Positions 576 through 18,799 of a stretch of DNA of 64,000 nucleotides are shown piece after piece. The position numbers and the translations under genes were made by a program. Numbering within the stretch: the stretch's first letter is position 1; each line of letters opens with the position of its first letter. The stretch is from Candidatus Oxydemutatoraceae bacterium (GTDB lineage: Bacteria; Pseudomonadota; Gammaproteobacteria; Poriferisulfidales; Oxydemutatoraceae): NCBI GenBank assembly GCA_965220085.1, contig CBDCOZ010000003.1:960001-1024000 (forward strand), given 5' to 3'. The notes under the pieces are model-generated. The model worked only from the letters and a program-made list of their open reading frames with translations. It made no database searches and had not been told where the DNA came from.

Positions 576-606
576 CGATCGTTACCGAGTTTGGAGAGTT
601 TGGACT

Positions 607-1317: not shown

Positions 1318-1350
1318 GTCGCGTTTTTGCCGGCGGGTAAGAATTTCTCG

Positions 1351-2661: not shown

Positions 2662-2755
2662 TGTGTCGTTCAATGTGTTCGGTTGAAATATTCAACGGCG
2701 CAGACAACAAGTTTGCGGCTCGGTTTGTTATACTTTCCCCCGAGGATACGGTCGT

Positions 2756-3979
2756 ATGAAAGAATTTGACAAGCAAGAGGCAACGGAGATTATCGCCGGG
2801 GGCGAGGGCGACCGAGTGGAGTTCAAGGAAGCCCTGTCCGGCAAATCCAAGAAGAGCATCATGGAAGCCATCTGCGCCTTTGCCAACGACCTGCCCGGGC
2901 ACGATGAGCCGGGGTATGTCTTTGTGGGTGTGCGCGATGACGGCACCCCCGCCGGCATTCAAATCAGCGACGAGACCTTGCTCAGCCTGGCCGACATACG
3001 CAGCAGCGGCAACATCCTCCCCTTGCCCTCCATGACGGTGGAGCGCATCAGTCTGCGGGGTGAGCAGGTGGCGATGGTCACCGTGCAACCGTCGGATTCC
3101 CCGCCGGTGCGTTGCTACGGCAACATAATGATTCGCACCGGCTCGCGTCGCGGTCTGGCCTCGGCTCAGGATGAGCGCATCCTCAATGAAAAGCGCCGCA
3201 GCCGCGATGCCCGCTATGAGCTGCGCCCGGCACCCCGCGCCAGAATGCAAGATCTGAGCATCACCAGATTCAAAGAAGATTATCTGCGCCACGCTTTCTC
3301 CAAAGAGGTGTTGACGGCTAACGAACGCACCGAGGAGGAGCAACTGGCGGCGCTCAAAATGATAGACAGCGCAGATAATCCGGTGCCCACGGTACTGGGC
3401 ATGCTCAGCATTGGCAGAGACCCGCTGGCCTTCCTGCCCTGCGCCTACATTCAGTTCCTCAGGTTTAAGGGCGACGAAATGTCCGACCAAATTTCCCGCC
3501 ACGTGGAAATCAGCGGCCCCTTGCAAACCATAATGGAGCGTCTGGACGGCATTTTTCAGGCCCACAATCATGAGGCGATAGATACGAGCGGCCCGCGGGA
3601 AAAGCGCATAGCGCTTTACCCCTGGGCAGCGCTACAAGAGCTCAGCCGCAACGCTATCATGCACCGCGACTACGAAACCAGCAACGCGCCGATTCGCATA
3701 CATTGGTTCGACGACCGCGCAGAGATTATCAATGCCGGCGGCGCCTACGGCGAGGTGACAGGGCACCTGGGCGAACCGGGATATGCCGATTACCGCAACC
3801 CCGGTCTGGCCACTGTCATGCGCGACATGGGCCTGGTGCAACGCTTTGGCACAGGCATACAGACAGCCCGCAAAGCCCTGCAAGACGGGGGCAATCCGCC
3901 GCTGGAACTATACGGGGATGACTCCATCGTTCGCGCCACCATCCGCCCCAGCCCGAGGTACACATATGGAACCCGCTGA
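2756..3979 (+). CDS. Schlafen/AlbA_2 domain protein with RecG-C-like (HATPase_c_4) domain
   Basis: [24 protein letters not shown]-terminal motifs; [19 protein letters not shown] and RNPGLA...GTGI C-terminal motifs. Confidence 0.85.
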
Positions 3980-4013
3980 GACCGATCCCATTCATACGAT
4001 AGGCGCTACAACT

Positions 4014-4138
4014 CCGACTTTGCGCAATGTTGAGTTGACCGCTCCGCATATGCGCAACGGCGGCATGTCAACATTGGCAGAGGTCATTGAATTTTATAAT
4101 CGCGGAGGCGTGGCGAACGAACTGCTGAGCCCCCTGAT
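4014..4138 (+). pseudogene. Duplicated internal 3' fragment of the ccp/mauG gene (copy of ~2359-2483)
   Basis: Translates as [42 protein letters not shown], near-identical to the intact gene. Confidence 0.9.
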
Positions 4139-4183
4139 GCAGAATGCAGTTCCCGATAGCTGGTGTGCATAATGAGTAGTTAG

Positions 4184-7100
4184 ATGAAACAAGAAAATTT
4201 CACCAGTAGCCATGGCATTCGCGACAATCGCGAGCGTGGCAGTGTCGGTGCGGACTTTCTCCGTAGATACTTGCGAAAGGGGACAGATCTCTCCATCGTC
4301 TCGGCCTACTTCACTATTAACGCCTACGAGTACCTGAAGGATGAATTGGAATCTATAAAGGGCCTACGTTTCCTGTTTGGCGAGCCAAGTTTGGTTGGTG
4401 TGAAGCAAGGTGATCAGGAAACCAAGGCATTTCAGTTAACCGATCAAGGCTTGTCGTTGGCCAATCAGCTGGAACAAAGCAGACTTGCCAAAGCGTGTTC
4501 CATTTGGATTCAGGAAAAGGTGCAGATTCGCTCCATGCAACAGGGAGATTTTCTGCACGGCAAGATGTACCACCTACAAAACGACGGAGCATCCAGTGCT
4601 CTGTTGGGCAGTTCTAATTTCACAGCGGCCGGCCTCGGCAGGTATGGTGGTAATGTGGAACTCAACTTAATTGTGGACAGCGACCGAGATCGTCAGGAGC
4701 TATTAAGCTGGTTTGAGCAGTGGTGGGAGGATGACGAGCGCACCGAGGATGTCAAGGAGCATGTGTTACGAGAATTAAAGCGACTCTACGATAATCACCC
4801 GCCTCAATTCATCTACTACCTGACCCTCTTTCACTTGTTCCGTGATGATGCCGAAGATGATGATAGCCAGCGTGATCAGATGGAAGGCCTCAAGCTACCT
4901 GATACGCAAATCTGGGAAAAGCTTTATCAGTTCCAGAAGGACGGAGCCAAGAGTGCTATCAATAAACTACTCAGACTGAACGGTTGCATACTGGCTGACA
5001 GCGTGGGATTAGGTAAGACCTTTACAGCTCTGGCGGTCATCAAGTACTTTGAGCTCAGGAACGAACGCGTCTTGGTGCTATGCCCCAAAAAACTGCACAG
5101 AAATTGGTCTATCTACCGGCAAGGTAACGATCTCCGTAATATCTTGTCGGAAGATCGCTTTGACTACGACCTGCTGGCGCATACCGATCTCAGCCGCACG
5201 AGCGGGACATCTGATACCGGTATGGATTTAGCCAATGTTAACTGGGGTGGCTATAGCCTCGTAGTGATTGATGAATCACATAATTTCCGCAACAACAGGT
5301 ACGCAGGTGAGGAAGGTAAGCAGACACGCTACGAAAAGCTTATCAAAGACATCATCGGTAGCGGTAGCAAAACTAAGGTTCTGCTACTGTCCGCTACCCC
5401 TGTCAATAATGAACTTTCCGACATCCGTAATCAAATTTCACTAATTGCTGGCGGTGATGTCAGCAGAGTACCTGAGGCCGATGCCGCCTTTGCCGCCTCT
5501 CAGACTTCCCTAGGTATCCCATCAGTCAAAGAGACTACTCGCATTGCTCAAAAGTACTTTACTGACTGGGCTAGAGCAGCTGAGACGAGTGAGCGGACCA
5601 CTAGTAGCCTGCTGGAAGTTCTCGGCGGTGATTTTTTTCATATGCTAGATGGTCTGCTTATCGCTCGCTCCCGAAGTAATATCAAGTACGCCTACGCAGA
5701 AGAAATGGGTAAGCTAGGTGGATTCCCAAATCGACCTACCCCGCAATCTATCTACTCACCCTTGGATTTGCTAGATGGTTGCCCATCCTTTGAAGAGATA
5801 GAGGGTAAAATCAGTCAACTTAGCTTAGCTTTGTATAACCCTACCGAATTTTTGAGGGAAGATTTAGACGAGGATACGCGGCTTTCCTATGAAGCTAAAA
5901 TCCACGGTGTCTTTACTCAGATGGGGCGTGAACGGATTCTGGTGGGCATGATGAAGACTAATTTTCTGAAGCGTCTAGAGAGTTCAGTGGATTCCTTCCG
6001 CCATACTCTGGAACGCACCATTGACAAAGCCAATGCTTTGCTAGATAAGCTGAATAGCTTTGCCGCGCGAGATACCAATACCGAGTTAAATGATAGTGAT
6101 GTCAATCCTGATGCTCTGGATGAAGAAGACGAGGAGCTGGTGGTTGGGAAGAAACGCAAAGTTTACTTAGGCCACATCGATATTGCCAGATGGAGAGAGT
6201 GCATTGAGAATGACCAGTGCCTTTTGAAAGGATTGCTAAATAAGACTCGCATAGTGAACCCCGAACGCGATGCCAAGCTGGCACAGCTATGTAAACTCAT
6301 CCAAGACAAGCTGCACAGTCCCAATGTCACCAAGGATGGGCGTGAGAACCGCAAGGTGTTAGTCTTCACCGCCTATGCTGACACTGCCTCGTATCTTTAT
6401 GAGAATCTAGAGAGTGCGGTGCGGTCGGAAGGTTGTCACATTGCTCTAGTACGGGGTGATGGTAACAACCGCAACACTTTGGGCGGTAACGAATTTGGGG
6501 AAATATTGGATTATTTTAGCCCACGATCTAGGATGCCTGAAAGAGAACCCGAAGATGAGGAGATTGACGTACTGATTGCCACCGACTGTATCTCTGAGGG
6601 GCAGAACCTGCAGGACTGCGACATAGTGGTCAATTACGACATTCACTGGAATCCAGTGCGCATTATCCAGCGCTTCGGGCGTATTGATCGCATAGGATCG
6701 AAGAATAGCGAGGTACACCTAGTGAACTTTTGGCCTGTGGAAGATCTGGATAACTATCTTAATCTGAAACACAGGGTGCAAGCTCGTATGGCGCTCGTGG
6801 ACGCAACCGCCACACAATCTGATAACTTGCTCACACAAGAAGGGTTGGAAGAACTGGTCACTAAAGATATACAACTCCAGAATCAACAATTGCATCGTTT
6901 GCAGGAGGAAGTTTTGGATTTGGAAGAGTTGGATGAGGCAGGTATTAACCTCAGTGATTTCTCATTGGAAGAGTTCCGTAACGAGCTCATGCAGTTTCTC
7001 AAAGCTGATCGCCAAGCACTAGAGTCTGCCCCCCTAGGCTTGTACACTGTGGTACAAGCCGACCCCGACATCCCAGCACGACCAGGTGCCGTGTTCTGCC

Positions 7101-7525
7101 TGCGCCAGAGAGAGCGGGAGGGAAGTGAGATGGCATCTAACGAGAGTGGCATCAACCCATTGGGCAGACACTACTTAGTTTATGTACACGACGATGGGGA
7201 GGTACGCCTTACTTTTACTTACCCCAAACAAATTCTGGACTTGTTGCGCCGTATAGCCGCAGGGCATGAGCAGGCATTGGCAGAGTTGTGCGATTTGTTT
7301 GACCGGAATACCGAACATGGCATGAACCTGCAACACTACGATGATTTGATAGAGAAAACCTTGCAATCCATCGCGAATGTCTACAGTAGATGTGCTGACA
7401 GAAATTTAGCTTCAGGGCGTGATGGCAGGCTACCTCTTACCTCTTCTCGTCCTACTAGGGATGAGGAAGACTACGAATTGTTAACTTGGTTTGTCATAAT
7501 TGCCCCCGAGGAGACTGTCTCATGA
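4184..7525 (+). CDS. SNF2-like helicase with N-terminal PLD nuclease domain (restriction/defence associated)
   Basis: HGKMY...GSSNFT (HKD-type PLD), ADSVGLGKT Walker A, DESHNFRN, SATP, TDCISEGQNLQD, QRFGRIDRIG. Confidence 0.9.
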   Translation: MKQENFTSSHGIRDNRERGSVGADFLRRYLRKGTDLSIVSAYFTINAYEYLKDELESIKGLRFLFGEPSLVGVKQGDQETKAFQLTDQGLSLANQLEQSRLAKACSIWIQEKVQIRSMQQGDFLHGKMYHLQNDGASSALLGSSNFTAAGLGRYGGNVELNLIVDSDRDRQELLSWFEQWWEDDERTEDVKEHVLRELKRLYDNHPPQFIYYLTLFHLFRDDAEDDDSQRDQMEGLKLPDTQIWEKLYQFQKDGAKSAINKLLRLNGCILADSVGLGKTFTALAVIKYFELRNERVLVLCPKKLHRNWSIYRQGNDLRNILSEDRFDYDLLAHTDLSRTSGTSDTGMDLANVNWGGYSLVVIDESHNFRNNRYAGEEGKQTRYEKLIKDIIGSGSKTKVLLLSATPVNNELSDIRNQISLIAGGDVSRVPEADAAFAASQTSLGIPSVKETTRIAQKYFTDWARAAETSERTTSSLLEVLGGDFFHMLDGLLIARSRSNIKYAYAEEMGKLGGFPNRPTPQSIYSPLDLLDGCPSFEEIEGKISQLSLALYNPTEFLREDLDEDTRLSYEAKIHGVFTQMGRERILVGMMKTNFLKRLESSVDSFRHTLERTIDKANALLDKLNSFAARDTNTELNDSDVNPDALDEEDEELVVGKKRKVYLGHIDIARWRECIENDQCLLKGLLNKTRIVNPERDAKLAQLCKLIQDKLHSPNVTKDGRENRKVLVFTAYADTASYLYENLESAVRSEGCHIALVRGDGNNRNTLGGNEFGEILDYFSPRSRMPEREPEDEEIDVLIATDCISEGQNLQDCDIVVNYDIHWNPVRIIQRFGRIDRIGSKNSEVHLVNFWPVEDLDNYLNLKHRVQARMALVDATATQSDNLLTQEGLEELVTKDIQLQNQQLHRLQEEVLDLEELDEAGINLSDFSLEEFRNELMQFLKADRQALESAPLGLYTVVQADPDIPARPGAVFCLRQREREGSEMASNESGINPLGRHYLVYVHDDGEVRLTFTYPKQILDLLRRIAAGHEQALAELCDLFDRNTEHGMNLQHYDDLIEKTLQSIANVYSRCADRNLASGRDGRLPLTSSRPTRDEEDYELLTWFVIIAPEETVS

Positions 7526-10500
7526 CGAATCTCAGCAAGCAAGAAATTCAAGACATCATCGATTGTCTAGCTGGGGGTAATTTGGCGCAGGAGGCGTATG
7601 CCCTGTTTAAGGCGCTTGGTTACCGCAGTGGTCGCACCGGGAATTCATCTGGCGCTGTTGGTGATTTTTTGACTCACGGTGGCTACAAGCTTACCGGCAC
7701 AGAAAGTGAAGCAACCTTTAAGGAGCAGGCTAAGGCCGTGCATATCCTATTCCAGATTACCGAAGACGAGATTAAGGCTGGGGTTGGTAATATGCTTGGG
7801 GAAGATGTCGACTTTAATTCCGGCAACAACAAGAGCTTTGTCTTCGTGGTCTCCGAGCTGTGTGAAGATTCCTATTCTCGTAGCCAATATGCCGCATTCA
7901 CCCGCGAAATCAACAAGCGCCTCCCCATGCCGGTGGTGGTGCTGTTCCGCACGGCATCAGGGCGCGTCTCGCTGGCATTCGTGCACCGCCGTCCTAGCAA
8001 AGTCAACACTGACCGTGATGTGCTTGGTCATGTGTCTCTGGTGCGTGAAGTCAATACACAGGCTCCCCACCGCGCTCACTTACAAACATTGCAAGACCTG
8101 TGCCTGCACAGGCGGCTGGAGTGGATACGCGATCACAGCCGCGATGAGAATTTTGACGGGCTACTGGATGCTTGGCTCGTAGCACTGGACACCCAAGAAC
8201 TCAACAAGCAGTTCTACAAAGAGCTGTTCGACTGGTTTAAGCGCGCAGTTGCAGAGGCAAGCTTCCCAGAGAGTGCTGGTTTGAAGCCCGAAGAGCAGAT
8301 TATCCGTCTCATTACCCGCCTGCTATTCATCTGGTTTATCAAAGAGAAAGGCTTGGTGGCCGATGAACTGTTTGTGGAAGAGCAGGTTGGGGGCCTGTTG
8401 AAGGACTATGATCGGGACAGCGGCGATTCCTATTACCGCGCTGTACTGCAGAATCTGTTCTTTGCCGTCCTCAACACGGAGATTGGGGAGCGCCGCTTCA
8501 GCAAGCAGACAAACGAGACACATCGGGATTTTTCCTGCTACCGCTACCGAAAAGAGATTGTGAAAACGGATCGCTTGCTGGCCATGTTTGACAAAACTCC
8601 CTTCATCAACGGTGGCTTGTTCGATTGCCTTGACGATTTTGAAGGTGTGAAGGAAGGTGGCAAACGAATTGACTACTTCACGGATAATCCTGCCCAGCGT
8701 CGCGGCTATTCCATGCCCAACCACCTGTTTTTTGGCCCCGAGGGACTAATCACGCTGTTTAGTCGCTATCACTTCACTGTAGAGGAGAACACCCCCATCG
8801 AGAGGGAGGTGGCATTGGATCCGGAGCTACTAGGGCGGACTTTCGAGAACCTGCTCGCCGCCTACAACCCAGAGACGAGGGACAAAGCCTCCGAGCGGAA
8901 ACTGACCGGGTCGTTCTACACGCCGCGCGAAGTGGTGGATTACATGGTGGATCAAGCACTATTGGAATCGCTGGCGGCTCTAGTCACTACAGACGAGGCT
9001 AGTTGGTGGCGCGATCGGCTAGGGTATCTGCTGGATTATGCCGATGCCTGTGATGACGCTTGGGAGTTGTTTGATGCCGAGGAGCGTAAACGCATCGTTG
9101 CCGCCGTGGCAAAGGTAAAAATCCTTGACCCGGCGGTAGGTTCCGGGGCATTTCCCATGGGAGTACTCCACAAATTAACGTTAATACTACGTCGCTTGGA
9201 TCCCGACAATAAAAAGTGGCGCAAGGTACAACGCGATCTAGCTACAGAGCGAGCAAGTAAGGCTTTCAAACGAACTGGTAAGGAGCAACGCAAAGAGGCT
9301 CTGCAAGAAATCAACGAACTCTTTGAGAGTTACAGTGGTTCAGATTTTGGTCGCAAGCTGTACCTAATCCAGAACAGCATTTTCGGGGTGGATATACAGC
9401 CAATCGCCTGCCAAATAGCCAAGCTACGCTTCTTTATTTCGCTAGCCATAGAGCAGAGACCAAATAAGAACAAGCAATCAAACTATGGTATCCGGCCACT
9501 ACCCAACTTGGAAACCCGCTTTATTGCGGCTGATTCGCTCATAAATATACTGATTCCTTCTCAGCTAACGATGGTGTCAGATGAAAAAGAAAATATAAAG
9601 CAAGAAATTAAAGATAATCGCGAGTGTTATTTTCATGCCGCCACACGCTCGGATAAAAAGGCGATGATTGAAAAGGATAAAGATCTGCGCATTAAATTAG
9701 CAGACCTACTGTGGCAAGAGTGGGGGCAAGGAGATGCCGGCGAGATTGATGGGGCGAATTTGTGGCGGAATAAAAACAAAGAACATAAAAAGGAAAAGGA
9801 ATATACCGATAAGATAGCTCAATGGGACCCTTACGATCAGAATAGTTATGCAGGTTGGTTTAATTCCGAATACATGTTTGACATTACCGAGGGCTTTGAC
9901 ATCGTCATCGGCAATCCGCCGTACATTCAACTCCAGAAGATAGACAGCAAGATGAAGAAGCTCTACATGGCAGAAGGGTATAAAGTATGTGTGGGCAATG
10001 GGGATATTTATACCCTGTTTTATGAGCGCGGCCTGCAACTGTTGAAAGATGGGGCGCACCTGTGCTTTATCACATCTAATAAATGGATGTGCGCCGGATA
10101 CGGCAAAAAGTTGCGCGAATTGTTCTCCCAGAAATGCCCCAAAAACCTTATCGATTTCAGCGGCTTTCGGGTCTTTGACAGTGCGACCGTGGACACCAAC
10201 ATTATTCTGATAGCCAAAGCCAATATGCCCGCCGATGGCAAGTTGCAGGCCACTTCCATGCGCGATGACTTCAGTCCTGAGAACAGCATACATAAGTATG
10301 TGGAGGACAACAAAATTGACATTAAAGCAGAGAATCTGAAGATGGCGGAGGCACCGTGGATTATCTGCACACCCGCAGAATTTGCCTTGAAAGAAAAGAT
10401 TGAAAGGATAGGTGTGCCCTTGAAAGAGTGGGATATTTCCATTAACTACGGAATAAAGACTGGTTGTAACGATGCGTTTATCATTGATAACGAAACTAGG

Positions 10501-11172
10501 GAAGCCTTACTAGCAGAGGATTCTAAATCCGGAGAGATTCTAAAACCGCTCCTGCGGGGCCGTGACATCAAGCGCTATAGGGCTAAACGGGCTGAGAAGT
10601 GGCTGATTACCACGCATAATGGCTATGGAGATGTGCCACCTATTGATATCGGTGACTACCCAGCTGTGAAAAGACATCTGGATCGGTTCCATTCGCGAAT
10701 AGTGGCACGAGAAGATCAGGGTACCACCCCATATAACCTTCGCCATTGCGCGTACTACCCCGAGTTTATGCGCGATAAGATTGTTTGGAGTGATATTTCC
10801 ACTAAACCAGCATTCACGATGATGAAAGCAGGGGTATATCTCTTGAATACAGCGTATATGATTACTACAGACAAGCCATACCTTCTTGCTTTCTTAAATT
10901 CCAAATTAGCAGGATACTATATGTCCCTGACAGCAACTGGCTTAGGTGGGCATGGGGTCAGATACTTTAAACAATTTGTGGAGAAGGTTCCTGTCCCAAA
11001 GATAAGTGATGATAAGCATAAATCCTTCGCAAACATAGCAGACAGGATTCTGAATTCCGAAAATCAACCAGCCCACGTCACCAAATTAGAGCGGGATATT
11101 GACCATTTAGTCTATGCGCTCTATGACTTCACTGATGCAGAGATTCAGATGATTGAGAGCTACCAATCATAG
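7522..11172 (+). CDS. Type IIG / Eco57I-like N6-adenine methyltransferase-restriction protein with C-terminal target recognition domain
   Basis: GSFYTPREVV, LDPAVGSGAF (motif I), GNPPY (motif IV), PFINGGLF, TaqI_C-like TRD; ATGA overlap with the helicase. Confidence 0.9.
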   Translation: MTNLSKQEIQDIIDCLAGGNLAQEAYALFKALGYRSGRTGNSSGAVGDFLTHGGYKLTGTESEATFKEQAKAVHILFQITEDEIKAGVGNMLGEDVDFNSGNNKSFVFVVSELCEDSYSRSQYAAFTREINKRLPMPVVVLFRTASGRVSLAFVHRRPSKVNTDRDVLGHVSLVREVNTQAPHRAHLQTLQDLCLHRRLEWIRDHSRDENFDGLLDAWLVALDTQELNKQFYKELFDWFKRAVAEASFPESAGLKPEEQIIRLITRLLFIWFIKEKGLVADELFVEEQVGGLLKDYDRDSGDSYYRAVLQNLFFAVLNTEIGERRFSKQTNETHRDFSCYRYRKEIVKTDRLLAMFDKTPFINGGLFDCLDDFEGVKEGGKRIDYFTDNPAQRRGYSMPNHLFFGPEGLITLFSRYHFTVEENTPIEREVALDPELLGRTFENLLAAYNPETRDKASERKLTGSFYTPREVVDYMVDQALLESLAALVTTDEASWWRDRLGYLLDYADACDDAWELFDAEERKRIVAAVAKVKILDPAVGSGAFPMGVLHKLTLILRRLDPDNKKWRKVQRDLATERASKAFKRTGKEQRKEALQEINELFESYSGSDFGRKLYLIQNSIFGVDIQPIACQIAKLRFFISLAIEQRPNKNKQSNYGIRPLPNLETRFIAADSLINILIPSQLTMVSDEKENIKQEIKDNRECYFHAATRSDKKAMIEKDKDLRIKLADLLWQEWGQGDAGEIDGANLWRNKNKEHKKEKEYTDKIAQWDPYDQNSYAGWFNSEYMFDITEGFDIVIGNPPYIQLQKIDSKMKKLYMAEGYKVCVGNGDIYTLFYERGLQLLKDGAHLCFITSNKWMCAGYGKKLRELFSQKCPKNLIDFSGFRVFDSATVDTNIILIAKANMPADGKLQATSMRDDFSPENSIHKYVEDNKIDIKAENLKMAEAPWIICTPAEFALKEKIERIGVPLKEWDISINYGIKTGCNDAFIIDNETREALLAEDSKSGEILKPLLRGRDIKRYRAKRAEKWLITTHNGYGDVPPIDIGDYPAVKRHLDRFHSRIVAREDQGTTPYNLRHCAYYPEFMRDKIVWSDISTKPAFTMMKAGVYLLNTAYMITTDKPYLLAFLNSKLAGYYMSLTATGLGGHGVRYFKQFVEKVPVPKISDDKHKSFANIADRILNSENQPAHVTKLERDIDHLVYALYDFTDAEIQMIESYQS
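10437..10613 (+). repeat. Left arm of a ~175 bp inverted repeat inside the methylase at the start of its TRD
   Basis: TTCCATTAACTACGGAATAAA...AACGATGCGTTTATCATTGATAACGA...ACTAGGGAAGCCTTACTAGCAGAGGAT matches the reverse complement of 11773-11949. Confidence 0.92.
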
Positions 11173-11174
11173 AG

Positions 11175-11957
11175 CTAACGCCGCTCTTCAATTATCGCTA
11201 TCTCAGCTTTTGTTAGACTAAATAGCGTATATGCCAGATTATCTACTTGCTCTTCTAACTTATTCGTGTTCTCGCGCCTCGCTTTCGCTACGCTGATTTT
11301 TTGCAACAGCTCTACAAAAGGTTGCTGCTCGTTTTGCGGTATTCTGGGAATTGTGATGTTCTCTGCAAAAAGTTTCTGCATCAAATACCCCTTGCTATCC
11401 CGTGAATAGACATACAATGGTATCAAAAATCGAACAATCTTCGAGTTTAACATGGTGCACAGATAAGGCAGGTGTTGCCCTGTGATAATGAAGGCAGTCT
11501 TATCTGTTACAAGTTCGTTGCCAAAATCCATAAAGAATCTGGGGAATTCATCAGGCATACCCTTAGCCTCCCTCATCGTTTCAGGATACACAATCTTATC
11601 GCGCATAAACTCGGCGTGGTATGCAATGCTATCTTGAGTCTCATACCATTTGTAGCCAGTTGCCTTTCGGCTACCAGGCGCACCAGTCTGCTGCAGTCGA
11701 TGCTTGCCAAATGAAAGCAGGTGACGCTTTACAGCCTGATAATCATCAATGTCCAATTCTAGTGCAGGCAATGTGGCAATCAACCACAGTTCGGCCCATT
11801 CCGCCCTGTAGCGTTTTATGTCGCGGCCTCGCAGTATCGGCTTCAGAATCTCCTCGGATTTAGGATCCTCTGCTAGTAAGGCTTCCCTAGTCTCGTTATC
11901 AATGATAAACGCATCGTTGCAGCCCGTTTTTATTCCGTAGTTAATGGAATTGTTCAA
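11175..11957 (-). CDS. Silent alternative target recognition domain (C-terminal cassette) for the type IIG enzyme
   Basis: Begins SINYGIKTGCNDAFIIDNETREALLAED, identical to the expressed TRD start, then diverges; no methylase motifs; tail-to-tail with the main gene. Confidence 0.85.
   Translation of the reverse strand: MNNSINYGIKTGCNDAFIIDNETREALLAEDPKSEEILKPILRGRDIKRYRAEWAELWLIATLPALELDIDDYQAVKRHLLSFGKHRLQQTGAPGSRKATGYKWYETQDSIAYHAEFMRDKIVYPETMREAKGMPDEFPRFFMDFGNELVTDKTAFIITGQHLPYLCTMLNSKIVRFLIPLYVYSRDSKGYLMQKLFAENITIPRIPQNEQQPFVELLQKISVAKARRENTNKLEEQVDNLAYTLFSLTKAEIAIIEERR
11773..11949 (-). repeat. Right arm of the inverted repeat
   Basis: Reverse complement of 10437-10613 with mostly third-codon-position differences. 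Confidence 0.92.
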
Positions 11958-12016
11958 TCCTTAACCTCTTTGTTTCTGTTATAAGAGGATTTTCATTTAA
12001 CTGGGAGACCATATCC

Positions 12017-12982
12017 ATGAAATCAATAATTCAACACTCAATCACAGATATTCGCCGAGATATTGTTACTGGTGCTTTGGCTCAAAACACTATCCGCACA
12101 TATAAAAAGGCATGGGACGATTTTTCTGCCTATTGTAAAAGTCGGCGAATTAAGCCACTTGCAGCGACACCAGACACAGTGGCAGAGTTTCTGATAGAGA
12201 GTGCTACTAAACCATCACTTGCTACTGGCCGGCCATTGTCGGTCGGGTCTCTATCAATCCTTAATTGTGCGATTGCAAAACACTTCTGGTTGCATGAGAG
12301 ACAATCACCCACCAACCACCCAAAGGTAGTGACCGCTATGCGAGGACTGGCGCGTATCAACGGTAAGCCGCCCAGACAGGTCAAGGCATTGCGCGAGAAG
12401 CACATAGTCGAAATGATAAAGCAGTGCGATACCGGCACGTTAATAGGGACGCGCGATGCGGCGCTACTGGCGGTGGGTTTCTCTGCTGCGTTGCGTCGTA
12501 GTGAACTTTGTGCATTGCAAGTCGACGACATTGAGGTGATAGATGACGAGGGCGGATTACGTATGATGCTGACCATCCGCAAATCTAAAACCGACCAAGC
12601 TGGACTAGGCCAAGCTATACCGGTGCTAGATGGCAAGTTCATAAGGCCTGTCACCCATTTGCTGCAATGGTTGCACGAATCTGGCATCACCGATGGTTAC
12701 ATATTTCGTTCTTTGCGGCGCGGAGGGCATATGAGGGGTGATTGTTTGCACCACAGTGATATCCCGCGCCTAGTAAAACGCTATGCTGCTGCCATTGGTC
12801 TTGACCCTGCACATTACGCAGGCCATAGCCTACGCGCTGGATTTGTCACTAGTGCCGCTGCTCACGGCGCACGCATGGATAAGATTATGGAGGTCACGCG
12901 GCATACTAACACCCAGACCTTGATGAAGTATATCCGCGATGCCAATGTATTCAGTGAACATGCAGGCACTAAATTTCTGTGA
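12017..12982 (+). CDS. Tyrosine recombinase (Cre/phage integrase family), candidate invertase
   Basis: RDAALL, LRRSEL (R), KSKTDQ (K), GHSLRAG (HxxR), RH and KYIR (Tyr) catalytic residues. Confidence 0.92.
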   Translation: MKSIIQHSITDIRRDIVTGALAQNTIRTYKKAWDDFSAYCKSRRIKPLAATPDTVAEFLIESATKPSLATGRPLSVGSLSILNCAIAKHFWLHERQSPTNHPKVVTAMRGLARINGKPPRQVKALREKHIVEMIKQCDTGTLIGTRDAALLAVGFSAALRRSELCALQVDDIEVIDDEGGLRMMLTIRKSKTDQAGLGQAIPVLDGKFIRPVTHLLQWLHESGITDGYIFRSLRRGGHMRGDCLHHSDIPRLVKRYAAAIGLDPAHYAGHSLRAGFVTSAAAHGARMDKIMEVTRHTNTQTLMKYIRDANVFSEHAGTKFL

Positions 12983-13118
12983 ACAATTTGAATAAGGCCA
13001 GCTGTTAAATCTTGGGTAACCACAAAACATAACCAAAGTTGAGGAGGATGAAAGATGAGTGTCGGTTCGTAGTGGTATAGCTGAATACCTCCTACTTAAA
13101 TCCTAATATCAAATTAGT

Positions 13119-13342
13119 TCAATTGTGCAGAATCAGGATTTCGCCTTTGCCGTTTGCGGCACAGTCGCCGACATAGCGGTTTGCCAGCTTTGGCAAGGGC
13201 AAGGGCTCAAAGCCGATGTCAAGCTTTTGCAAGTAGTTTGACAGTAAGGTCAGAAACTCGGTTTCAAAGTATTTATTCTGGTTGATAAAGGTCTGGGGCA
13301 GGCCGCCCTGCGGTAATTGACGCAGGATGATGCTCCCTCTTT
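13119..13342 (-). pseudogene. Displaced duplicate of the fhcC 3' end (direct repeat of 17987-18210)
   Basis: ~224 bp near-identical copy including the stop codon; the few differences I found are synonymous. Confidence 0.92.
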
Positions 13343-13461
13343 CCAGAGCGGAATTGACAAGGATGAAGTGTAAAAGGTATGCGGCGGATGTTTTTGAAGG
13401 TGGTGAGGAGGCTTTTAATATGCAAAAATCCAAATATGACTTTTGAATATGGATACAGACA

Positions 13462-14664
13462 ATGCTGAAAAGTGAACTTCTGGAATTAATCGACCAAGGG
13501 GAAGGGCCCAAACTGGAATTTGATCGCGATGATGTCCGCCCTGAAAATCTGGCTAAGGAAATAGTGGCTTTCACCAACATGAACGGCGGCCAAATACTTA
13601 TGGGTGTTGAAAATGATGGAGACATCAGCGGCATACGGAGGAATAACCTTCGGGAATGGGTAATGGATACGGTTATTGGTCGCCATGTTCATCCATATAT
13701 TCATCCGGACTATCAAGAAATTTCGCTTGAAGATAAGAAAGTAGCCGTGATTGATATCCCCATGGGGACTGTCAAGCCATACACTCTCAAACACAATGAT
13801 CGCCAAGATGCGTATGTTCGTTATGGGAATATATGTAAGCCGGTAAATCGTGCACAGCAGGCAAGGTTGTATGCATCCGGCGGGTCTTATTCGATTGAAA
13901 GACTTCCCGTTCCGGGTTCAAAGATTAGTGAACTGAGCAAGCCTCGCTATCTCCAATATTTCTCCGATGTTTTGGAAGAAACGATAGACATTGATGAAGA
14001 GTTTCTTGAAAATCGTTATTTCCTCGTAGATTCAAGTGGTGGCCTATCGTGCAGTTATTTCGCATATGCGCTGTTTGCCAAGAGACCTGGTCTGCGGTTG
14101 CCACAGGCGCCGGTTCGCGTAACTGTATATCCCGGCAATGATAAGGATTACGATACTTCATTGGATGAGAGTCCGGATGTGCCCTATGTGGGGTTATGCA
14201 ATGATGAAGGTGCTGTTGTCGAACCCGCCATTCATGAGAGAGTCATGGCGCTGATACAGTCGCATATCAGTAAAGAACAGTTGGTGGATGCCACCCGAAC
14301 ACGGCTGTGGGACTATCCGCCGGAGGCTATCAGGGAGGCCATAGTCAATGCGCTTGTCCATCGCGATTGGACCAAGACGGGCTGTGTGCGCTTGGAGGTG
14401 TATGGCGACCGCTTGGAAATCCATAGCCCCGGTTCTCTGCCCAATGGCATGACTGTCGATGGGGTAAAACATGGGGCGCGATTTGCCCGCAATCAGCAGT
14501 TGGTTCGCGTATTCAATGATTACGGATATATGGAAGGCCGGGGAATGGGTATACGCCGCAAGATTATCCTGCTGAGCTTGAAACATAGTGGCCGTGAGCC
14601 AGACTTTGAGGCAACAGAAGACCACTTCAAAGTGATACTGTATAAGAAAGATGCTCGCACCTGA
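13462..14664 (+). CDS. Second Schlafen/AlbA_2 + HATPase_c_4 domain protein
   Basis: GEGPKLEF, IVAFTNMNGG, MGVENDG; YPPEAIREAIVNALVHRDW, SPGSLP, RNQQL, GMGI. Confidence 0.85.
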   Translation: MLKSELLELIDQGEGPKLEFDRDDVRPENLAKEIVAFTNMNGGQILMGVENDGDISGIRRNNLREWVMDTVIGRHVHPYIHPDYQEISLEDKKVAVIDIPMGTVKPYTLKHNDRQDAYVRYGNICKPVNRAQQARLYASGGSYSIERLPVPGSKISELSKPRYLQYFSDVLEETIDIDEEFLENRYFLVDSSGGLSCSYFAYALFAKRPGLRLPQAPVRVTVYPGNDKDYDTSLDESPDVPYVGLCNDEGAVVEPAIHERVMALIQSHISKEQLVDATRTRLWDYPPEAIREAIVNALVHRDWTKTGCVRLEVYGDRLEIHSPGSLPNGMTVDGVKHGARFARNQQLVRVFNDYGYMEGRGMGIRRKIILLSLKHSGREPDFEATEDHFKVILYKKDART

Positions 14665-15001
14665 AACCGAACAACCGATTATCAACTCGCCATACGAGGA
14701 ACCGAAGGCGCACTGGAAGATTCATGCCCATGAACCGGCAGAGAAGGTGGAGGGGCGGCGCATGGCGGCTTATATGTATCTGCCATCCGGCAAGTCCCAT
14801 GATGTGGAGGATGAGCGCAAGACCGGCTACGAACTGGAATTGCAACTGGTGACACTGTTGCGTGAGCGGGTTACCGAGTGGCGGGAGATGGCACGGCGCG
14901 GCGAGGGCGGTGTCAGCAGGGTGACTATGGAACTGCTGAACTACTGGCGCCGCGAAGGGCGGAAGCATCGGTTGTTCTTTGCGCAGTTGGAAGTAGCGTA
15001 G
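14651..15001 (+). pseudogene. Truncated N-terminus of a type III restriction-like (Res/DEAD) subunit
   Basis: PIINSPYEEPKAHW, LRERVTEWR, TMELLNYW and LFFAQLE resemble the N-terminus of large type III Res proteins; stops after 116 aa before any helicase motif. Confidence 0.7.
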
Positions 15002-15080
15002 GTGGTTGTATTTCTAGCCTTTCAGGTTTTGTTTCAGTTATGGTATAACAGCCAGTACCCTTACAACTGGAGACCATACC

Positions 15081-15665
15081 ATGAAAATTTTCATATTCTC
15101 ACCCCAATCCATCTATATGGAGATTTGGCAATGCCTTAAGATTCGCCGCTCTGTTTATGTGCAAAACAGAAATCTATATTTCTTGACGATGCTTGTTGTC
15201 GCACTTACAGCATCTACAGACGCATTCGCCGCAAATCTAGACCAGCACATAAACATGGGCCCTACTGAAAGGGAAATCGGCATGATGCTTGATGAACAAG
15301 TTTTCAAGAATGGAATAGAAGTGTTCAATAAGAAGAACTGGTTTCCCCCTGCTAGATGCAAAGCTTATTTAGGTGGTGCAAAAGACCATCCAACACAAGT
15401 ACGTCTATTAACTGATGCCAAAAAGGGCTACATGCCCATAGTAATAAGGTCATATCTGAGATTCCAAGGGGATGGCTGTAGAGGGGTTTTCAGACCCTTT
15501 GTAAAATCTCAGTATGTAGGATTTGCTGTTAAAATTCTCCCTGCCCCTGCCAATAATCCCAAGTGCGGGAAGATGATTGTATTGGAGAAATCAAATATTA
15601 AGAAATTGCCAGGGATAATAGAAACCAATATAGACAAAAAAATGAAATACCAAATATGCAGCTAG
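15081..15665 (+). CDS. Hypothetical, probably secreted protein (true start likely further downstream)
   Basis: AT-rich ORF; LVVALTASTDAFA signal-peptide-like segment; four Cys in the mature part. Confidence 0.55.
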   Translation: MKIFIFSPQSIYMEIWQCLKIRRSVYVQNRNLYFLTMLVVALTASTDAFAANLDQHINMGPTEREIGMMLDEQVFKNGIEVFNKKNWFPPARCKAYLGGAKDHPTQVRLLTDAKKGYMPIVIRSYLRFQGDGCRGVFRPFVKSQYVGFAVKILPAPANNPKCGKMIVLEKSNIKKLPGIIETNIDKKMKYQICS

Positions 15666-15916
15666 TCTACTGGTAACAATTAATATAGCTCTGTATACTG
15701 GCTATTGCAGAGTGCGACTATGATGCTTATATTCAAGTCAAACAGGGATAATAAGCATTACTTAGTCTGGGTGGCGCATTAAGGTGCCGCCCGACGCTGG
15801 GTCAATGCGGTGAACGTCGACGGCAAGCATGGTCATTGGCAATATTGCATGGTGTCAGAAAGCGAGAAGGCCGTTGATGCGGTGGATGATGCCGTCAAAG
15901 CCGCGAGCCGCACATA

Positions 15917-16127
15917 GCCTATGCGCACTATCGGCTCCGAACACGGCGCTGTTTATCGATGCCAAGCTCCATAACACAGGGCCGGGGCACGAAGTATCCG
16001 TCAGAAAAGAGGCACTGACCGAGAGGGTCCGGCCTTCCAAGGCCTTTGTTGGGGCCAAGCATGAGTTTATAAAAGAGGTATCGCGCATCGGCAATAGCCT
16101 GAATGATTTGGGTGCGTATAATGTAAC
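15917..16127 (+). pseudogene. Degenerate internal fragment of ccp/mauG (homologous to ~2113-2325)
   Basis: ALFIDAKLHNTGPGHEVSVRKEALTERV...EFIKEVSRIG..NDLGAYNVT versus ALFTDNKLHNTGLGYEISMKKETPTERV...EFIKEVTRVG..NDLGAYEVT. Confidence 0.85.
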
Positions 16128-16207
16128 AAGAAAATGGGTGGCAGGTGGCCACTGGGCTGCACATAGGATAAAGATACCTCATTCCACACATATATAAACT
16201 GACTACG

Positions 16208-17383
16208 ATGAAAATTGAACGTATAGAGATTAATAATTTCCGCGCGCTACATAGTGTGGTTCTGAAAGATATTCCCAGCTTAGCTGTTTTTATTGGCAAA
16301 AACGGCAGCGGCAAGTCCACTTTGTTTCAAGTATTTGGTTTCTTAAAAGATGCACTGCAGAATAATGTACAAACAGCTTTGCAAAGAATGGGCGGATACC
16401 ATGAGGTGGCGACGCGAGGTCATTCGGATGAGCCAATCAGCATAGAAATAAAGTTCAGGATGAAGATTGCCGAGAAAGAACGACTGGTCACATACCGCGT
16501 TGAGATTGCCCGCAGAGACGACCGGCCTTTCGTCCGCCGCGAGATACTGCGTTACAAGAGAGGGTCTTTCGGTTCTCCGTTTCATTTTCTGGATTTTAGC
16601 AATGGCAACGGCTACGCGATTAACAATGAGGAGGATTTCAATAAACCGGACATAGAACTGGAGAAAGAGCATCAGAAGTTGCCCGACAATGTTCTGGCCA
16701 TCAAGGGCTTGGGGCAGTTTGAAAGGTTTAAGGCGGCCAGCGCTTTTCGCCATCTGATAGAGAACTGGCATGTCTCCGATTTCCATATAGCCGCCGCACG
16801 GCAGCGCGCAGAAGCCGGTGTGGCCGAGCATCTGTCTCCGACAGGAGACAACCTGCCGCTGGTCGCCCAATATTTGCAGAAGGGGAATCCGGAGGTGTTC
16901 CGGAAGATATTGGATAGGTTCCAAGAGCGGATTCCGGGCATGGGGAAGGTCACCGCGGATGTTACTCAGGATGGGCATGTGCTGCTGCGATTTAGCGATG
17001 CTTCTTTCAAAGATCCTTTCATTGCGCGATTTGTATCTGACGGAACCATTAAGATGTTTGCCTATCTGGTTTTGTTGCATGATCCCGAGCCTCACCCCTT
17101 TTTATGTATTGAGGAACCGGAAAACCAGCTTTACCCGGATCTTTTTGAAGCATTGATGGAGGAGTTGCGCGAATACGGCAGACTGGGAGGACAGGTATTT
17201 GTGTCCACGCATTCGCCGGACATCATGGATTATGCGGAGATTGAGGAAGCATTTCAGTTGGAAAAGAACTCCGGCAAAACTCAGATAAAAGCAATAAAGA
17301 ACAACGAGCAGGTCGCGGCGCTTGTCGAAGGGGGAGACAAACTGGGCTGGCTTTGGAATCAAAATTTGCTGACAGCCGATTAA
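16208..17383 (+). CDS. ABC-type AAA ATPase (AAA_15/AAA_21 family), defence associated
   Basis: GKNGSGKST Walker A, SDGT signature, IEEPEN Walker B, STHS switch. Confidence 0.88.
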   Translation: MKIERIEINNFRALHSVVLKDIPSLAVFIGKNGSGKSTLFQVFGFLKDALQNNVQTALQRMGGYHEVATRGHSDEPISIEIKFRMKIAEKERLVTYRVEIARRDDRPFVRREILRYKRGSFGSPFHFLDFSNGNGYAINNEEDFNKPDIELEKEHQKLPDNVLAIKGLGQFERFKAASAFRHLIENWHVSDFHIAAARQRAEAGVAEHLSPTGDNLPLVAQYLQKGNPEVFRKILDRFQERIPGMGKVTADVTQDGHVLLRFSDASFKDPFIARFVSDGTIKMFAYLVLLHDPEPHPFLCIEEPENQLYPDLFEALMEELREYGRLGGQVFVSTHSPDIMDYAEIEEAFQLEKNSGKTQIKAIKNNEQVAALVEGGDKLGWLWNQNLLTAD

Positions 17384-17385
17384 CC

Positions 17386-17985
17386 ATGCCTGAAACCGCA
17401 CATCTGTGTTTGTATGTCATGCTGGAGGAACGTAGCGCCGAGCGCTTGATGAAAGCACTGTTGCCTCATATCCTTCCCGAAGAACTGGCATCCGGCGCCA
17501 TAAGCGCCAAATGCATCCCCCACAGAGGCAGAGGTGATTTGCAAAAGTCTATTCCCAACAAACTGCGTAACTGGCGCACTCCAAACTCCCTTTTTGTGAT
17601 TTTGCACGATCAAGACAATGAGGATTGTCACGGATTAAAAAGAGATTTGCGTTCCCTGTGTGCGGGCAGCCAATGTGAGCATAATCCGCTGATAAGAATC
17701 GTATGCACTGAGTTAGAGTCTTGGTATTTTGGAGATTTGGACGCTGTGGAAGCGGCATACCCCGGATTCAAGGCGGATAGATATCGCAACAAGAGCCAAT
17801 ACAGGGTGCCGGATGCCATTCAAAAGCCGAGTGAGAGGCTTAAGAGCTTAATCAAAGAGTTTGATAAAAGTACGGCTGCCAAGAAAATACCCCGACACAT
17901 GGATATTAACCGTAACCGTTCCGCAAGTTTTATATGTATGGTGGAAGGTATCCGCAATCTGGTGCGCGGAGCAATAGTAGCGTAG
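17386..17985 (+). CDS. DUF4276-like (TOPRIM-related) partner of the ATPase
   Basis: MLEERSAE, LHDQD, ELESWYFGD and NRSASF motifs; directly coupled to the ATPase. Confidence 0.75.
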   Translation: MPETAHLCLYVMLEERSAERLMKALLPHILPEELASGAISAKCIPHRGRGDLQKSIPNKLRNWRTPNSLFVILHDQDNEDCHGLKRDLRSLCAGSQCEHNPLIRIVCTELESWYFGDLDAVEAAYPGFKADRYRNKSQYRVPDAIQKPSERLKSLIKEFDKSTAAKKIPRHMDINRNRSASFICMVEGIRNLVRGAIVA

Positions 17986-17986
17986 C

Positions 17987-18799
17987 TTAATTGTGCAAAA
18001 TCAGGATTTCGCCTTTGCCGTTTGCGGCACAGTCGCCGACATAACGGTTTGCCAGCTTTGGCAAGGGCAAGGGTTCAAAGCCGATGTCAAGCTTTTGCAA
18101 GTAGTTTGACAGTAAGGTCAGGAACTCGGTTTCAAAGTATTTATTCTGGTTGATAAAGGTCTGGGGCAGGCCGCCCTGCGGTAATTGACGCAGGATGATG
18201 CTCCCTCTTTTGATTCCTTGTGCGCAAGAATTGCCGCATTGTCCGGAGACGATGACTGTGCCGGCTTTCATCCGTGAAGCGCAGAAAGCTCCCGCATCAC
18301 CGCGTATTGCAATCAGGCCGCGACGCATATGGTCGCCGCTGCGCTCGCCCGCATTGCCCAGCACAAAAATTTCGCCGCCGCGCATTCCTTGTATGGCTCC
18401 TGTTACCGCACCGCCGCAAAAGTCGCCTGCATTGTTGTGCACGATGACGCGCCCGCCGCTCATGGCATGGCCGCAAAAGTTGCCGACATGCCCGCGCACC
18501 CGTATCACTCCTCCGGACAGTTTGGCTGCGGTATAGTGGCCGACATCGCCGGTGACTTGCAACTCGCCTTGGGTCATCGCTGCGCCGACATAATTGAGCT
18601 GCTTACAAGCGCCGGTAATTTCCAACGCTTCTTTTGTGTCCTGTATTACTTCGAACAGATCGCCGACACGGATAGTGTCTCCGGCTGCTTTCAATGTTTG
18701 CCTCTCAATCTCCGAAATGCTCTGCTGCTGACAAAACTCAGGCGTCAGCGGCGACATATCAACACTGTTATCGGGTTTGTTTTTCAGTCTCAATTTCAT
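17987..18799 (-). CDS. fhcC: Formyltransferase/hydrolase complex subunit C (FwdC-like)
   Basis: GXGXG beta-helix repeats (GAAMTQG, GHAMSGG, GDHMRRG); ATGA overlap with fhcD. Confidence 0.9.
   Translation of the reverse strand: MKLRLKNKPDNSVDMSPLTPEFCQQQSISEIERQTLKAAGDTIRVGDLFEVIQDTKEALEITGACKQLNYVGAAMTQGELQVTGDVGHYTAAKLSGGVIRVRGHVGNFCGHAMSGGRVIVHNNAGDFCGGAVTGAIQGMRGGEIFVLGNAGERSGDHMRRGLIAIRGDAGAFCASRMKAGTVIVSGQCGNSCAQGIKRGSIILRQLPQGGLPQTFINQNKYFETEFLTLLSNYLQKLDIGFEPLPLPKLANRYVGDCAANGKGEILILHN

Follow-up and report, generated by a model that had tools for sequence, protein, structure and literature searches.

The locus lies in a 64,000-nucleotide window, the whole stretch of DNA that was analysed, and comprises two translationally coupled genes, a silent cassette in reverse orientation and a recombinase gene (Table 1). 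The first gene encodes a protein with PLDc_2 (5.3e-9), SNF2-rel_dom (1.8e-10) and Helicase_C (6.7e-15) domains in Pfam, which matches the PADLOC model 'HKD+Snf2' (PDLC01075, 1.1e-121). Its stop codon overlaps the start of the second gene as ATGA, and this ATG (7522) was taken as the methylase start in place of the TTG (7486) given by the ORF finder. The methylase carries the Eco57I (6.3e-40) and TaqI_C (1.2e-9) domains, and hence methyltransferase and recognition domain, in one polypeptide; its translation contains DPAVGSGAF and NPPY motifs and matches the PADLOC model REase_MTase_IIG (1.9e-138).

Table 1. Features of the locus, in window coordinates.
Feature	Positions	Strand	Basis or remark
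PLD (single HKD motif) and SNF2 helicase protein, 1113 aa	4184–7525	+	Pfam, PADLOC
N6-adenine methyltransferase with C-terminal TaqI_C-type recognition domain, 1216 aa	7522–11172	+	Pfam, PADLOC, PDB
Outer inverted repeat IR1, left arm	10437–10613	+	Encodes conserved start of recognition domain
Expressed N-sub-module, type 'H' (THNGY...)	10614–10749	+	Alignment and segment identities
Inner inverted repeat IR2, left arm	10750–10784	+	Exact 25-nt core 10760–10784
Expressed C-sub-module 1 and stop codon	10785–11172	+	Alignment and segment identities
Silent C-sub-module 2	11175–11589	-	Tail-to-tail with C-sub-module 1; 2 nt separate the stops
IR2, right arm	11590–11624	-	Exact core 11590–11614
Silent N-sub-module, type 'F' (ATLPAL...)	11625–11772	-	Alignment and segment identities
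IR1, right arm	11773–11949	-	Opens silent cassette
Cre-like tyrosine recombinase, intact, 321 aa	12017–12982	+	Pfam Phage_integrase 7.5e-15

A preliminary description of this DNA had labelled the methylase type IIG, which fits the union of methylase and recognition domain in one chain but is not established for the nuclease domain. PDB sequence matches cover only residues 770–1204 (to the CamA, BseCI and TaqI methylases), and no Pfam or PDB sequence match was found before residue 465. VIA-align of an N-terminal model gave weak matches to MmeI (Z 8.6, residues 227–419) and to the N-domain of DrdV (Z 6.1, residues 5–215), and a Foldseek search of PDB with a 600-aa model of the N-terminal part returned nothing at E ≤0.001. 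The candidate E-x-K motif is variable among 15 family members (ELK, ELT, NLK, ELQ, ELR, QLT) and reads ELC here. The PLD-SNF2 protein, presumed to be the ATP-driven nuclease of the pair, is the likelier nuclease of the system than the N-terminal domain of the methylase.

The recognition domain opens with one arm of an inverted repeat, IR1, first noted as a repeat of ~175 bp and recovered by self-blastn as 177 nt at 85.3% identity (E 1e-54); a repeat search extended the arms to 190 nt at 83% (10424–10613 and 11773–11962). In the 2.49-Mb genome the IR1 arms occur twice only, both times at this locus. A second inverted pair, IR2 (35 nt, 91%), is nested inside IR1. The IR1 arms differ at 26 of 177 positions, 17 of them third codon positions (29% of the 59 available). 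Of the 26 mismatches, 6 fall within the initial 88 nt and 20 within the remaining 89. The first half retains exact runs of 27, 26 and 21 nt; if mismatches were placed at random, the third-longest run would reach 21 nt or more with P ~0.01. The small dyads previously reported inside perfectly conserved blocks are present at 10437–10453 and 10478–10490, both in exact blocks. A motif common to the IR1 and IR2 cores, GTTTAT-N4-GATAA, was discarded as a candidate site because it is unconserved in other loci and is dictated by codons.

The start-less second recognition domain of the preliminary description is likewise present. The active gene stops at 11170–11172 and the silent frame (11175–11957, minus strand) at 11175–11177; this frame is open for 260 aa (11178–11960), with no ATG and with a sole TTG two codons after an upstream stop. 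The silent cassette matches TaqI_C (2.4e-7), and its alignment with the active recognition domain shows 44% identity (E 3e-61); both cassettes match TaqI_C only in Pfam, and Methylase_S is absent from them.

The recombinase gene is intact, as had been noted, and lies outside the invertible segment on the methylase strand, 55–68 bp beyond the repeat (first estimated at ~70 bp). It scores 55.6 bits against PF00589 (cut-off 27.1), and no PADLOC model matches it. The earlier assignment as Cre-like agrees with our analysis: Cre is the closest solved structure (E 1.6e-8, aligned over residues 10–309), and the full catalytic set (R160/R161, K191, H270, R273, H296 and Y305) is invariant in eight of eight orthologues. 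The locus has the coding-sequence inverted repeats, partial inverted paralogue and adjacent recombinase of a programmed-inversion locus in the sense of Milman et al. 2023.

Inversion in silico at the two repeat pairs yielded uninterrupted reading frames in all four arrangements (1216, 1225, 1229 and 1220 aa); in each of them the cassette left outside the gene remains open too. Inversion does fuse the alternative recognition domain in frame, as had been predicted. The two-state shufflon originally envisaged does not hold, since the nested IR2 allows four chimeras and relatives are inverted at both repeat pairs; with all four arrangements intact in frame, the locus is a potential four-state switch. 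We consider it probable that it encodes a restriction-modification-like defence pair in which the recognition domain of an MmeI/Eco57I-like methylase is rebuilt by programmed inversion via the Cre-like recombinase. The neighbouring recombinase would act as catalyst at the two nested repeat pairs, with inversion at IR1 exchanging the whole variable part of the recognition domain for the silent cassette and inversion at IR2 exchanging the last ~130 residues only. One promoter would then express an N1-C1, N1-C2, N2-C2 or N2-C1 methylase, and each of these would presumably recognise a different motif. Distinct specificities of the four methylases would change the methylome and restriction range of a cell line, the PLD-SNF2 protein being predicted to cut DNA without the methyl mark.

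Comparison with related loci supports the association of these parts. Relatives of the methylase are very abundant: 256 were found, with two or three copies in several genomes. We compared the best 80 of these 256, for 66 of which at least 2 kb of downstream sequence was available. An inverted copy of the recognition domain is present at 9 of the 80 loci. A recombinase orthologue (45–58% identity) occurs at the same nine and at 0 of the 57 others with enough flank. The repeats lie at the same two positions in all nine, and the position and strand of the recombinase beside the outer repeat are constant across five phyla. Among metagenome contigs with this recombinase family, 10 of 21 carry an inverted cassette directly upstream. 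The related records are mostly sponge-associated MAGs. The further short inverted repeats seen in 12 related loci fall between genes, outside the methylase.

The N-sub-modules come in two types, 'H' and 'F', with one of each per locus; the types are ~30% identical to each other, and members of one type are 53–98% identical. The active/silent label changes 8 times on a 20-tip tree, against a mean of 6.9–7.0 for shuffled labels; the state of the switch does not track phylogeny. Direct comparisons of loci reveal past inversions. L026 and L027 are collinear at 74–82% identity, but the 926-nt segment between their inner repeats is inverted at 87%, with the C-sub-modules swapped (89% and 85%) and the N-sub-modules not. 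Between L066 and L073 the flanks are 96% identical and the N-sub-modules are swapped (98% and 83%), as are those of L082 relative to L026 and L027, and L058 and a metagenome contig (L120) carry a segment of 906 nt in opposite orientations (94% identity). Related genomes, named in the preliminary description as a check on orientation, thus contain both orientations, at the outer and at the inner repeat.

These comparisons bear on the view that the silent cassette is a functionless, decayed duplicate and that the repeats reflect protein-level conservation of the domain start. The repeats do encode INYGIKTG..AFIIDN and CAY..F...K motifs that are present in all homologues, but the two IR2 copies within a locus are identical even where a change would be synonymous, and also where the encoded residues vary from locus to locus. 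Moreover, 71 of the 80 homologous loci have no second cassette, the cassette is always inverted, tail-to-tail and beside the recombinase where it is present, and orthologous cassettes have been exchanged between related genomes. Already contradicted by the comparative data, this view is extremely improbable.

The catalyst requires separate consideration, as general homologous recombination might drive inversion or gene conversion while the recombinase, an Xer-like enzyme or an island integrase, is only carried along as a passenger. The perfect co-occurrence of recombinase and cassette (9/9 vs 0/57) and the fixed position and strand beside the outer repeat in five phyla argue against this. An exact core of 25 nt and arms at 85% identity would, in addition, generally make poor substrates for RecA-type exchange. 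On the other hand, no repeat core sequence shared between loci was found, so that a strictly sequence-specific site is not evident, and the IR1 arms, 85% identical here, are 95–100% identical in L056, L058, L066, L073 and L084 (those of L058 being 343 bp long and 99.7% identical), a similarity that homologous exchange would be expected to preserve. The recombinase family also has members away from any methylase (L105 and L117), and the nearest recombinase relatives in 60 kin genomes (40% identity in G053, 35% in G042) have no methylase or helicase nearby. A homologous locus in Lactococcus has an unrelated serine invertase, and no particular enzyme is therefore intrinsic to the design; as a dedicated invertase at the same position, however, it argues that a site-specific enzyme is required. 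We judge a passenger role improbable and regard the Cre-like recombinase as the putative catalyst.

Assembly data from run X1 were used to look for both orientations in this organism. The Logan contigs listed at the locus span 9900–10784, 10760–11614 (855 nt) and 11590–11958, and these de Bruijn contigs break exactly at both IR2 cores. In a k=31 unitig simulation the reference alone produced no break, while addition of an IR2-inverted copy produced exactly the observed IR2 boundaries. Logan is described as retaining 31-mers seen at least twice and dropping contigs of 150 bp or less (PMC12424806); the junction unitigs, at 35 nt, fall below this reporting size, and the evidence for inversion consists of contig boundaries, not junction sequences. 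These boundaries are suggestive of both IR2 orientations coexisting in the X1 population, and a co-resident strain with a cassette exchanged at the same cores could explain them equally. A 28-nt contig overlap at 9900–9927 was rejected as a counter-example because low-depth foreign homologues share an exact 32-nt stretch there, at the NPPY motif.

For the outer repeat, the contig 9900–10784 runs continuously through the left IR1 arm in run X1, leaving IR1 inversion unsupported in this population. In the simulation such an inversion gives boundaries at 10457, 10437, 11949 and 11929, of which only 11929 is observed among the contigs listed, and this pairs with 11958 as a plain 30-nt overlap. The one population signal in this organism is thus at the inner repeat, which the preliminary description had not reported. 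From ~1/100 of a Hi-C run (X2), 0 reads fell on the locus.

The family may be a real inversion switch that no longer flips here, the contig breaks then marking a second strain or a past exchange. Decay is common, as five of the nine related switch loci are visibly damaged: L058 by IS21, L084 by an IS630-like element, L066 and L073 by a 22-nt duplication and frameshift, and L056 by a truncated cassette and split recombinase. Such a history would also account for IR1 arms of only 85% identity with 29% of third positions changed, and for the lack of outer-repeat breaks among the contigs. Here, however, the helicase, the methylase, the 260-aa silent cassette and the recombinase with all its catalytic residues are intact, the exact 21–27 nt blocks of IR1 (P ~0.01) and the 25-nt exact core of IR2 persist, and the contig boundaries match both IR2 cores to the base. 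We consider loss of switching at this locus unlikely; programmed inversion may still be under way here.

More tentatively, and with rather less confidence than in the inversion itself, we propose that the recognition domain consists of two exchangeable sub-modules, an ancient H/F N-part and a hypervariable C-part, that the Cre-like recombinase may shuffle into 2x2 specificities, and that cassette and recombinase may have spread horizontally across at least five phyla, in records mostly from sponge-associated MAGs. Should each sub-module recognise a portion of the target, the boundary between them would be a natural splice point for engineering the specificities of single-chain methylases and nucleases; the natural half-domain chimeras L026 and L027 mark the place at which recombination within a TaqI_C-type recognition domain is tolerated, information of use for such work. 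If the switch is active, one uncultured, probably sponge-associated bacterium would present several methylation patterns and restriction ranges, hedging against phages and shaping gene flow in a dense microbial community.

Several known systems share parts of this layout. Class 1 DISARM comprises the DrmA helicase, DrmB (DUF1998) and DrmC alongside DrmD and DrmMI; here DISARM-like scores are partial (NCBIfam DrmD 161 bits against a cut-off of 610; PADLOC DrmMI 2e-22), and no DUF1998 or DrmA was found among the 10 neighbouring ORFs scanned. A type-2 BREX-related system combines a DUF499 ATPase, DUF3780, an HKD-Snf2 helicase and a methylase with a nested recognition domain (PMC12839542), whereas the recognition domain here is C-terminal and the ORFs scanned (600–17400) contain no DUF499 or DUF3780. 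By the weak model matches, the methylase appears to resemble the type IIL enzymes MmeI and DrdV (PDB 5hr4, 7lo5) in its nuclease-like N-domain, helical linker, gamma-class methylase and C-terminal recognition domain, but differs from them in its translationally coupled PLD-SNF2 partner and unconserved candidate E-x-K.

Among systems known to invert, the BREX type 1 PglX of Lacticaseibacillus rhamnosus is, by its published outline, similarly a large N6-adenine methylase in one chain that undergoes nested inversions and has a recombinase next to it (PMC9881135). Its two nested inversions are described as swapping a middle segment through one-inversion intermediates without a C-terminus, whereas all arrangements here are complete; the methylase scores 81.1 bits against NCBIfam BREX_1_MTaseX (cut-off 500), and no BrxC or PglZ was found among the neighbouring ORFs scanned. 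Type I hsdS shufflons, exemplified by pneumococcal SpnD39III with the tyrosine invertase PsrA (PMC4948785, PMC7096588, PMC7672463), likewise combine, as described there, a tyrosine recombinase with several pairs of inverted repeats and with silent, incomplete specificity genes, and exchange two half-modules combinatorially. They exchange two separate recognition domains of HsdS, whereas here one TaqI_C-type domain is split in two and the locus has no HsdS (Methylase_S) units.

The Lactococcus loci (L. cremoris JM1 pJM1F, NZ_CP016750.2; L. lactis FM03P pLd8 orf33-35) encode homologous PLD-SNF2 (30–32%) and methylase (32%) proteins. As here, a gene for a 'TaqI-like C-terminal specificity domain' sits in reverse orientation, tail-to-tail, and is accompanied by an inverted repeat of 270 nt (75%); a recombinase gene follows immediately downstream, on the same strand as the methylase. 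At the blastn threshold used, a nested second repeat was not detected. The 2018 pLd8 paper regards the methylase as lacking a restriction domain and the PLD-SNF2 protein as probably the cutting component (PMC6098607); the words 'inversion' and 'invertase' do not occur in it. The Lactococcus enzyme is a serine invertase (Resolvase/Mpi family), in contrast to the tyrosine recombinase here, and the shared layout is a clear case of convergent recruitment.

The preliminary description had called recombinase-driven shuffling less familiar for a PLD-SNF2 and type IIG pair with a Cre-like recombinase; inversion in a PLD-SNF2 and methylase pair is already published (PMC9881135). Milman, Yelin & Kishony (NAR 2023) report long reads confirming inversions in a 'Type II RM enzyme homologous to Cj0031', at loci adjoining PLD and SNF helicase coding sequences (Bacteroides ovatus CP083813.1:5322008-5329826; CP044495.1), and describe such homologues with repeats in three phyla. 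To judge from that description, those loci resemble ours in pairing a PLD-SNF2 gene with an adjacent type II methylase of one chain whose coding sequence is altered by inverted-repeat inversion; the hosts here are uncultured, and coexistence of variants is deduced from a contig graph, as against long reads there. The locus does not overturn current understanding: the switch design was described in 2023, and the locus presented here has two nested flip points.

The window (G000:C3:960001-1024000) comes from a 2.49-Mb genome of three contigs. The gene upstream of the methylase encodes a PLD-SNF2 protein (PADLOC 'HKD+Snf2' match, 1.1e-121). Its stop overlaps the methylase ATG as ATGA, and GGAG precedes this ATG. 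The active recognition domain ending the methylase gene and the silent cassette lie tail-to-tail, their stops 2 nt apart; they share 44% identity overall (E 3e-61) and about 88% across the first 59 residues. The inverted repeat, silent second recognition domain and adjacent intact recombinase that had been picked out from the sequence alone are all confirmed.

Features of the switch locus and its surroundings (window positions)
Feature	Position	Strand	Description
Schlafen/AlbA_2 + HATPase_c_4 protein gene	2756-3979		
PLD-SNF2 protein	4184-7525		1113 aa; one PLD/HKD motif, SNF2 helicase core (Pfam PLDc_2, SNF2-rel_dom, Helicase_C)
Methylase	7522-11172		Eco57I-type N6-adenine methylase core, TaqI_C recognition domain
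Outer repeat pair, IR1	10437-10613 / 11949-11773		177 nt, 85% identity, E 1e-54
Inner repeat pair, IR2	10750-10784 / 11590-11624		inside IR1; exact core 25 nt
Silent cassette	11175-11957	minus	260-aa open frame; TaqI_C the only match
Tyrosine recombinase	12017-12982		321 aa
Schlafen/AlbA_2 + HATPase_c_4 protein gene	13462-14664		
AAA_21/AbiEii-like ATPase gene	16208-17383		
Island ORFs with no Pfam match	3783-4172, 14651-15001, 15081-15665, 15829-16197		

The IR1 arms differ at 26 sites, of which 17 are third codon positions and 20 lie in the distal half; identical stretches measure 27, 26 and 21 nt. IR2 encodes the mid-TaqI_C motif AY..EFMRDKIV. A whole-genome search found no other copy of either repeat core. 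When the locus is inverted in silico at IR1, at IR2 or at both, the methylase ORF stays uninterrupted, at 1229, 1225 and 1220 aa respectively (reference, 1216 aa), with the displaced cassette remaining open in each case. The layout therefore permits four expressed proteins, not two, so the invertible specificity switch first proposed holds in essence but its two-state form does not.

The closest solved structure to the recombinase is Cre (E 1.6e-8, residues 10-309), and Arg160/161, Lys191, His270, Arg273, His296 and Tyr305 are invariant in all eight orthologues. The methylase matches solved structures in sequence from residue 770 on only (CamA, BseCI and TaqI methylases). For a structure model covering residues 1-600 (pLDDT 75), Foldseek returned no match, and VIA-align paired residues 227-419 with MmeI (Z 8.6) and residues 5-215 with the N-terminal domain of DrdV (Z 6.1). 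A candidate E-x-K in this region is not constant across 15 family members, and the window has E-L-C instead; the 'type IIG' label of the preliminary description is therefore unproven and says too much, and the PLD-SNF2 protein is likelier than the methylase to be the nuclease of the system. A 2018 paper on the corresponding operon of Lactococcus takes the same view (PMC6098607). DISARM, BREX and the type-2 BR system were rejected, their required partners being absent among the ORFs scanned and curated scores far under cut-offs.

A methylase scan with one genome per species gave 256 relatives, of which the best 80 were kept. Their record titles, which state no habitat, are mostly those of MAGs of Poribacteria and other sponge-associated groups. 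The PLD-SNF2 gene is present in 68 of these best 80 loci. Among the 66 with at least 2 kb 3' of the methylase, on which the cassette count rests, nine have a copy of the recognition domain in inverted orientation (L026, L027, L041, L056, L058, L066, L073, L082 and L084, from Chloroflexota, Thermodesulfobacteriota, Pseudomonadota, Acidobacteriota and Binatota). Exactly these nine, and none of the remaining 57, have a recombinase orthologue (45–58% identity) directly past the cassette. The IR1 position is occupied by repeats in all nine (73–100% identity), and at the IR2 position each of the eight loci examined has a short, near-exact repeat whose sequence is specific to that locus. Metagenomes scanned with an alignment of eight recombinases gave 21 loci, 10 with an inverted cassette directly upstream of the recombinase; at least two others (L105 and L117) have recombinases surrounded by unrelated genes, and the recombinase family is therefore not confined to cassette use. 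The methylase family spreads over many phyla, in records that are mostly MAGs of sponge-associated groups. Single Poribacteria genomes hold two or three copies (L049, L051 and L059 are one record), L029, L034 and L054 come from one assembly, and two copies stand in tandem once (L049:1208-4894 and 7001-10594). The spread over many phyla suggests intense horizontal exchange.

The variable part of the recognition domain comprises an N-sub-module of 45–54 aa and a hypervariable C-sub-module of about 130 aa. N-sub-modules fall into two deep types, H and F (~30% identity between, 53–98% within types), and each locus has one of each. The expressed type is H in the window, L026, L027, L073 and L058, and F in L041, L056, L066, L082 and L084. 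In a 20-cassette tree, the active/silent label must change 8 times, and shuffled labels need no more. Between the Dehalococcoidia loci L026 and L027, whose flanks are collinear (82% upstream, 74% downstream), the 926-nt inter-IR2 segment is inverted (87%), with C-sub-modules swapped (89%, 85%) and N-sub-modules unswapped (89%, 93%). N-sub-modules are swapped between L082 and L026/L027 (82–91%), and between the Thermoanaerobaculia loci L066 and L073 (98%, 83%), which are 96% collinear across 6.4 kb. The 906-nt inter-repeat segment of L058 is inverted in the metagenome contig L120 (94%). These pairs show that inversions bounded by the outer and by the inner repeat pair have both occurred in the family.

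Five of the nine cassette loci are visibly damaged. An IS21 element (IstA/IstB) lies within the active recognition domain of L058 (10231-12695), and in L084 (9888-13435) the left repeat arm is split by an IS630-like DDE_3 transposase and further ORFs lying exactly within it. In L056 the cassette is truncated and the recombinase match is split. Within the left (fixed) IR1 arm, L066 (about 9990-10040) and L073 (about 9900-9950) share a tandem duplication of 22 nt that puts the methylase out of frame; in L066 the recombinase is interrupted as well. Since these two loci are in opposite cassette states, the frameshift is older than, or was carried through, an inversion; it could be a heritable OFF state.

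The preliminary description proposed a check for both orientations in reads. A single public run, X1, available in the form of Logan contigs, contains the stretch; Hi-C run X2 of the same study gave 0 reads on the locus, from about 1 in 100 of the run. The X1 contigs cover 9900-10784, 10760-11614 (855 nt), 11590-11958 and 11929 onward, each with zero mismatches. Logan graphs are made of 31-mers that occur two or more times, and its output is limited to contigs >150 bp (PMC12424806). In simulation the reference arrangement on its own yields one continuous unitig; with an IR2-inverted copy included, the unitigs are exactly ...-10784, 10760-11614 and 11590-..., accompanied by two junction unitigs of 35 nt, which Logan would drop. 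The matching 25-nt overlaps thus indicate that sequences with recombination at both IR2 cores are present among the X1 reads. No inverted junction is seen directly, and the source is either the inverted arrangement itself or a co-resident variant in which exchange took place at these points. Simulated IR1 inversion predicts four boundaries, of which 11929 alone coincides, and the left IR1 arm is unbroken; IR1 flipping is therefore unsupported in this sample. The 30-nt overlap of the last two contigs (window 11928-11959) is a plain graph branch; 11929 is the first base of the outer 21-nt exact core of IR1.

The locus lies within a region of lower GC (about 4000-18000; 0.44–0.54 vs. 0.55–0.60 outside), probably a defence island, which also holds the ATPase gene. 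The two Schlafen/AlbA_2 proteins flanking the system share just 23% identity. According to a 2026 survey, Schlafen-kinase-wHTH genes are common companions of BREX and related loci (PMC12839542). A second, distant helicase and methylase pair on the same contig, beyond the window (G000:C3:1880359-1885924) is 29% and 20–24% identical to that of the window, and tblastn detected no second recognition-domain copy there.

Taken together, the locus is likely to be a programmed-inversion specificity switch of the form described, the main doubt being whether it still flips here. The preliminary description called such shuffling less familiar for a PLD-SNF2 plus type IIG pair with a Cre-like recombinase, but this kind of switch is not new. 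In Milman et al. (2023), long-read-confirmed programmed inversions include 'Type II RM enzymes homologous to Cj0031' with adjoining PLD and SNF helicase CDS, and nested inversions are described in PglX (PMC9881135). Lactococcus cremoris pJM1F (NZ_CP016750.2, 1668-10161) likewise has homologues of the PLD-SNF2 gene, the methylase and the inverted TaqI_C gene, and a 270-nt repeat, but its recombinase, at the corresponding position, is a serine invertase of the Mpi family. The window locus therefore belongs to an already known kind of switch, to which we add the two-module anatomy, comparative proof that the outer and inner repeat pairs have each flipped, and an indirect inner-pair population signal; pJM1F, a plasmid of a cultured dairy Lactococcus, would make a convenient experimental model of the design.
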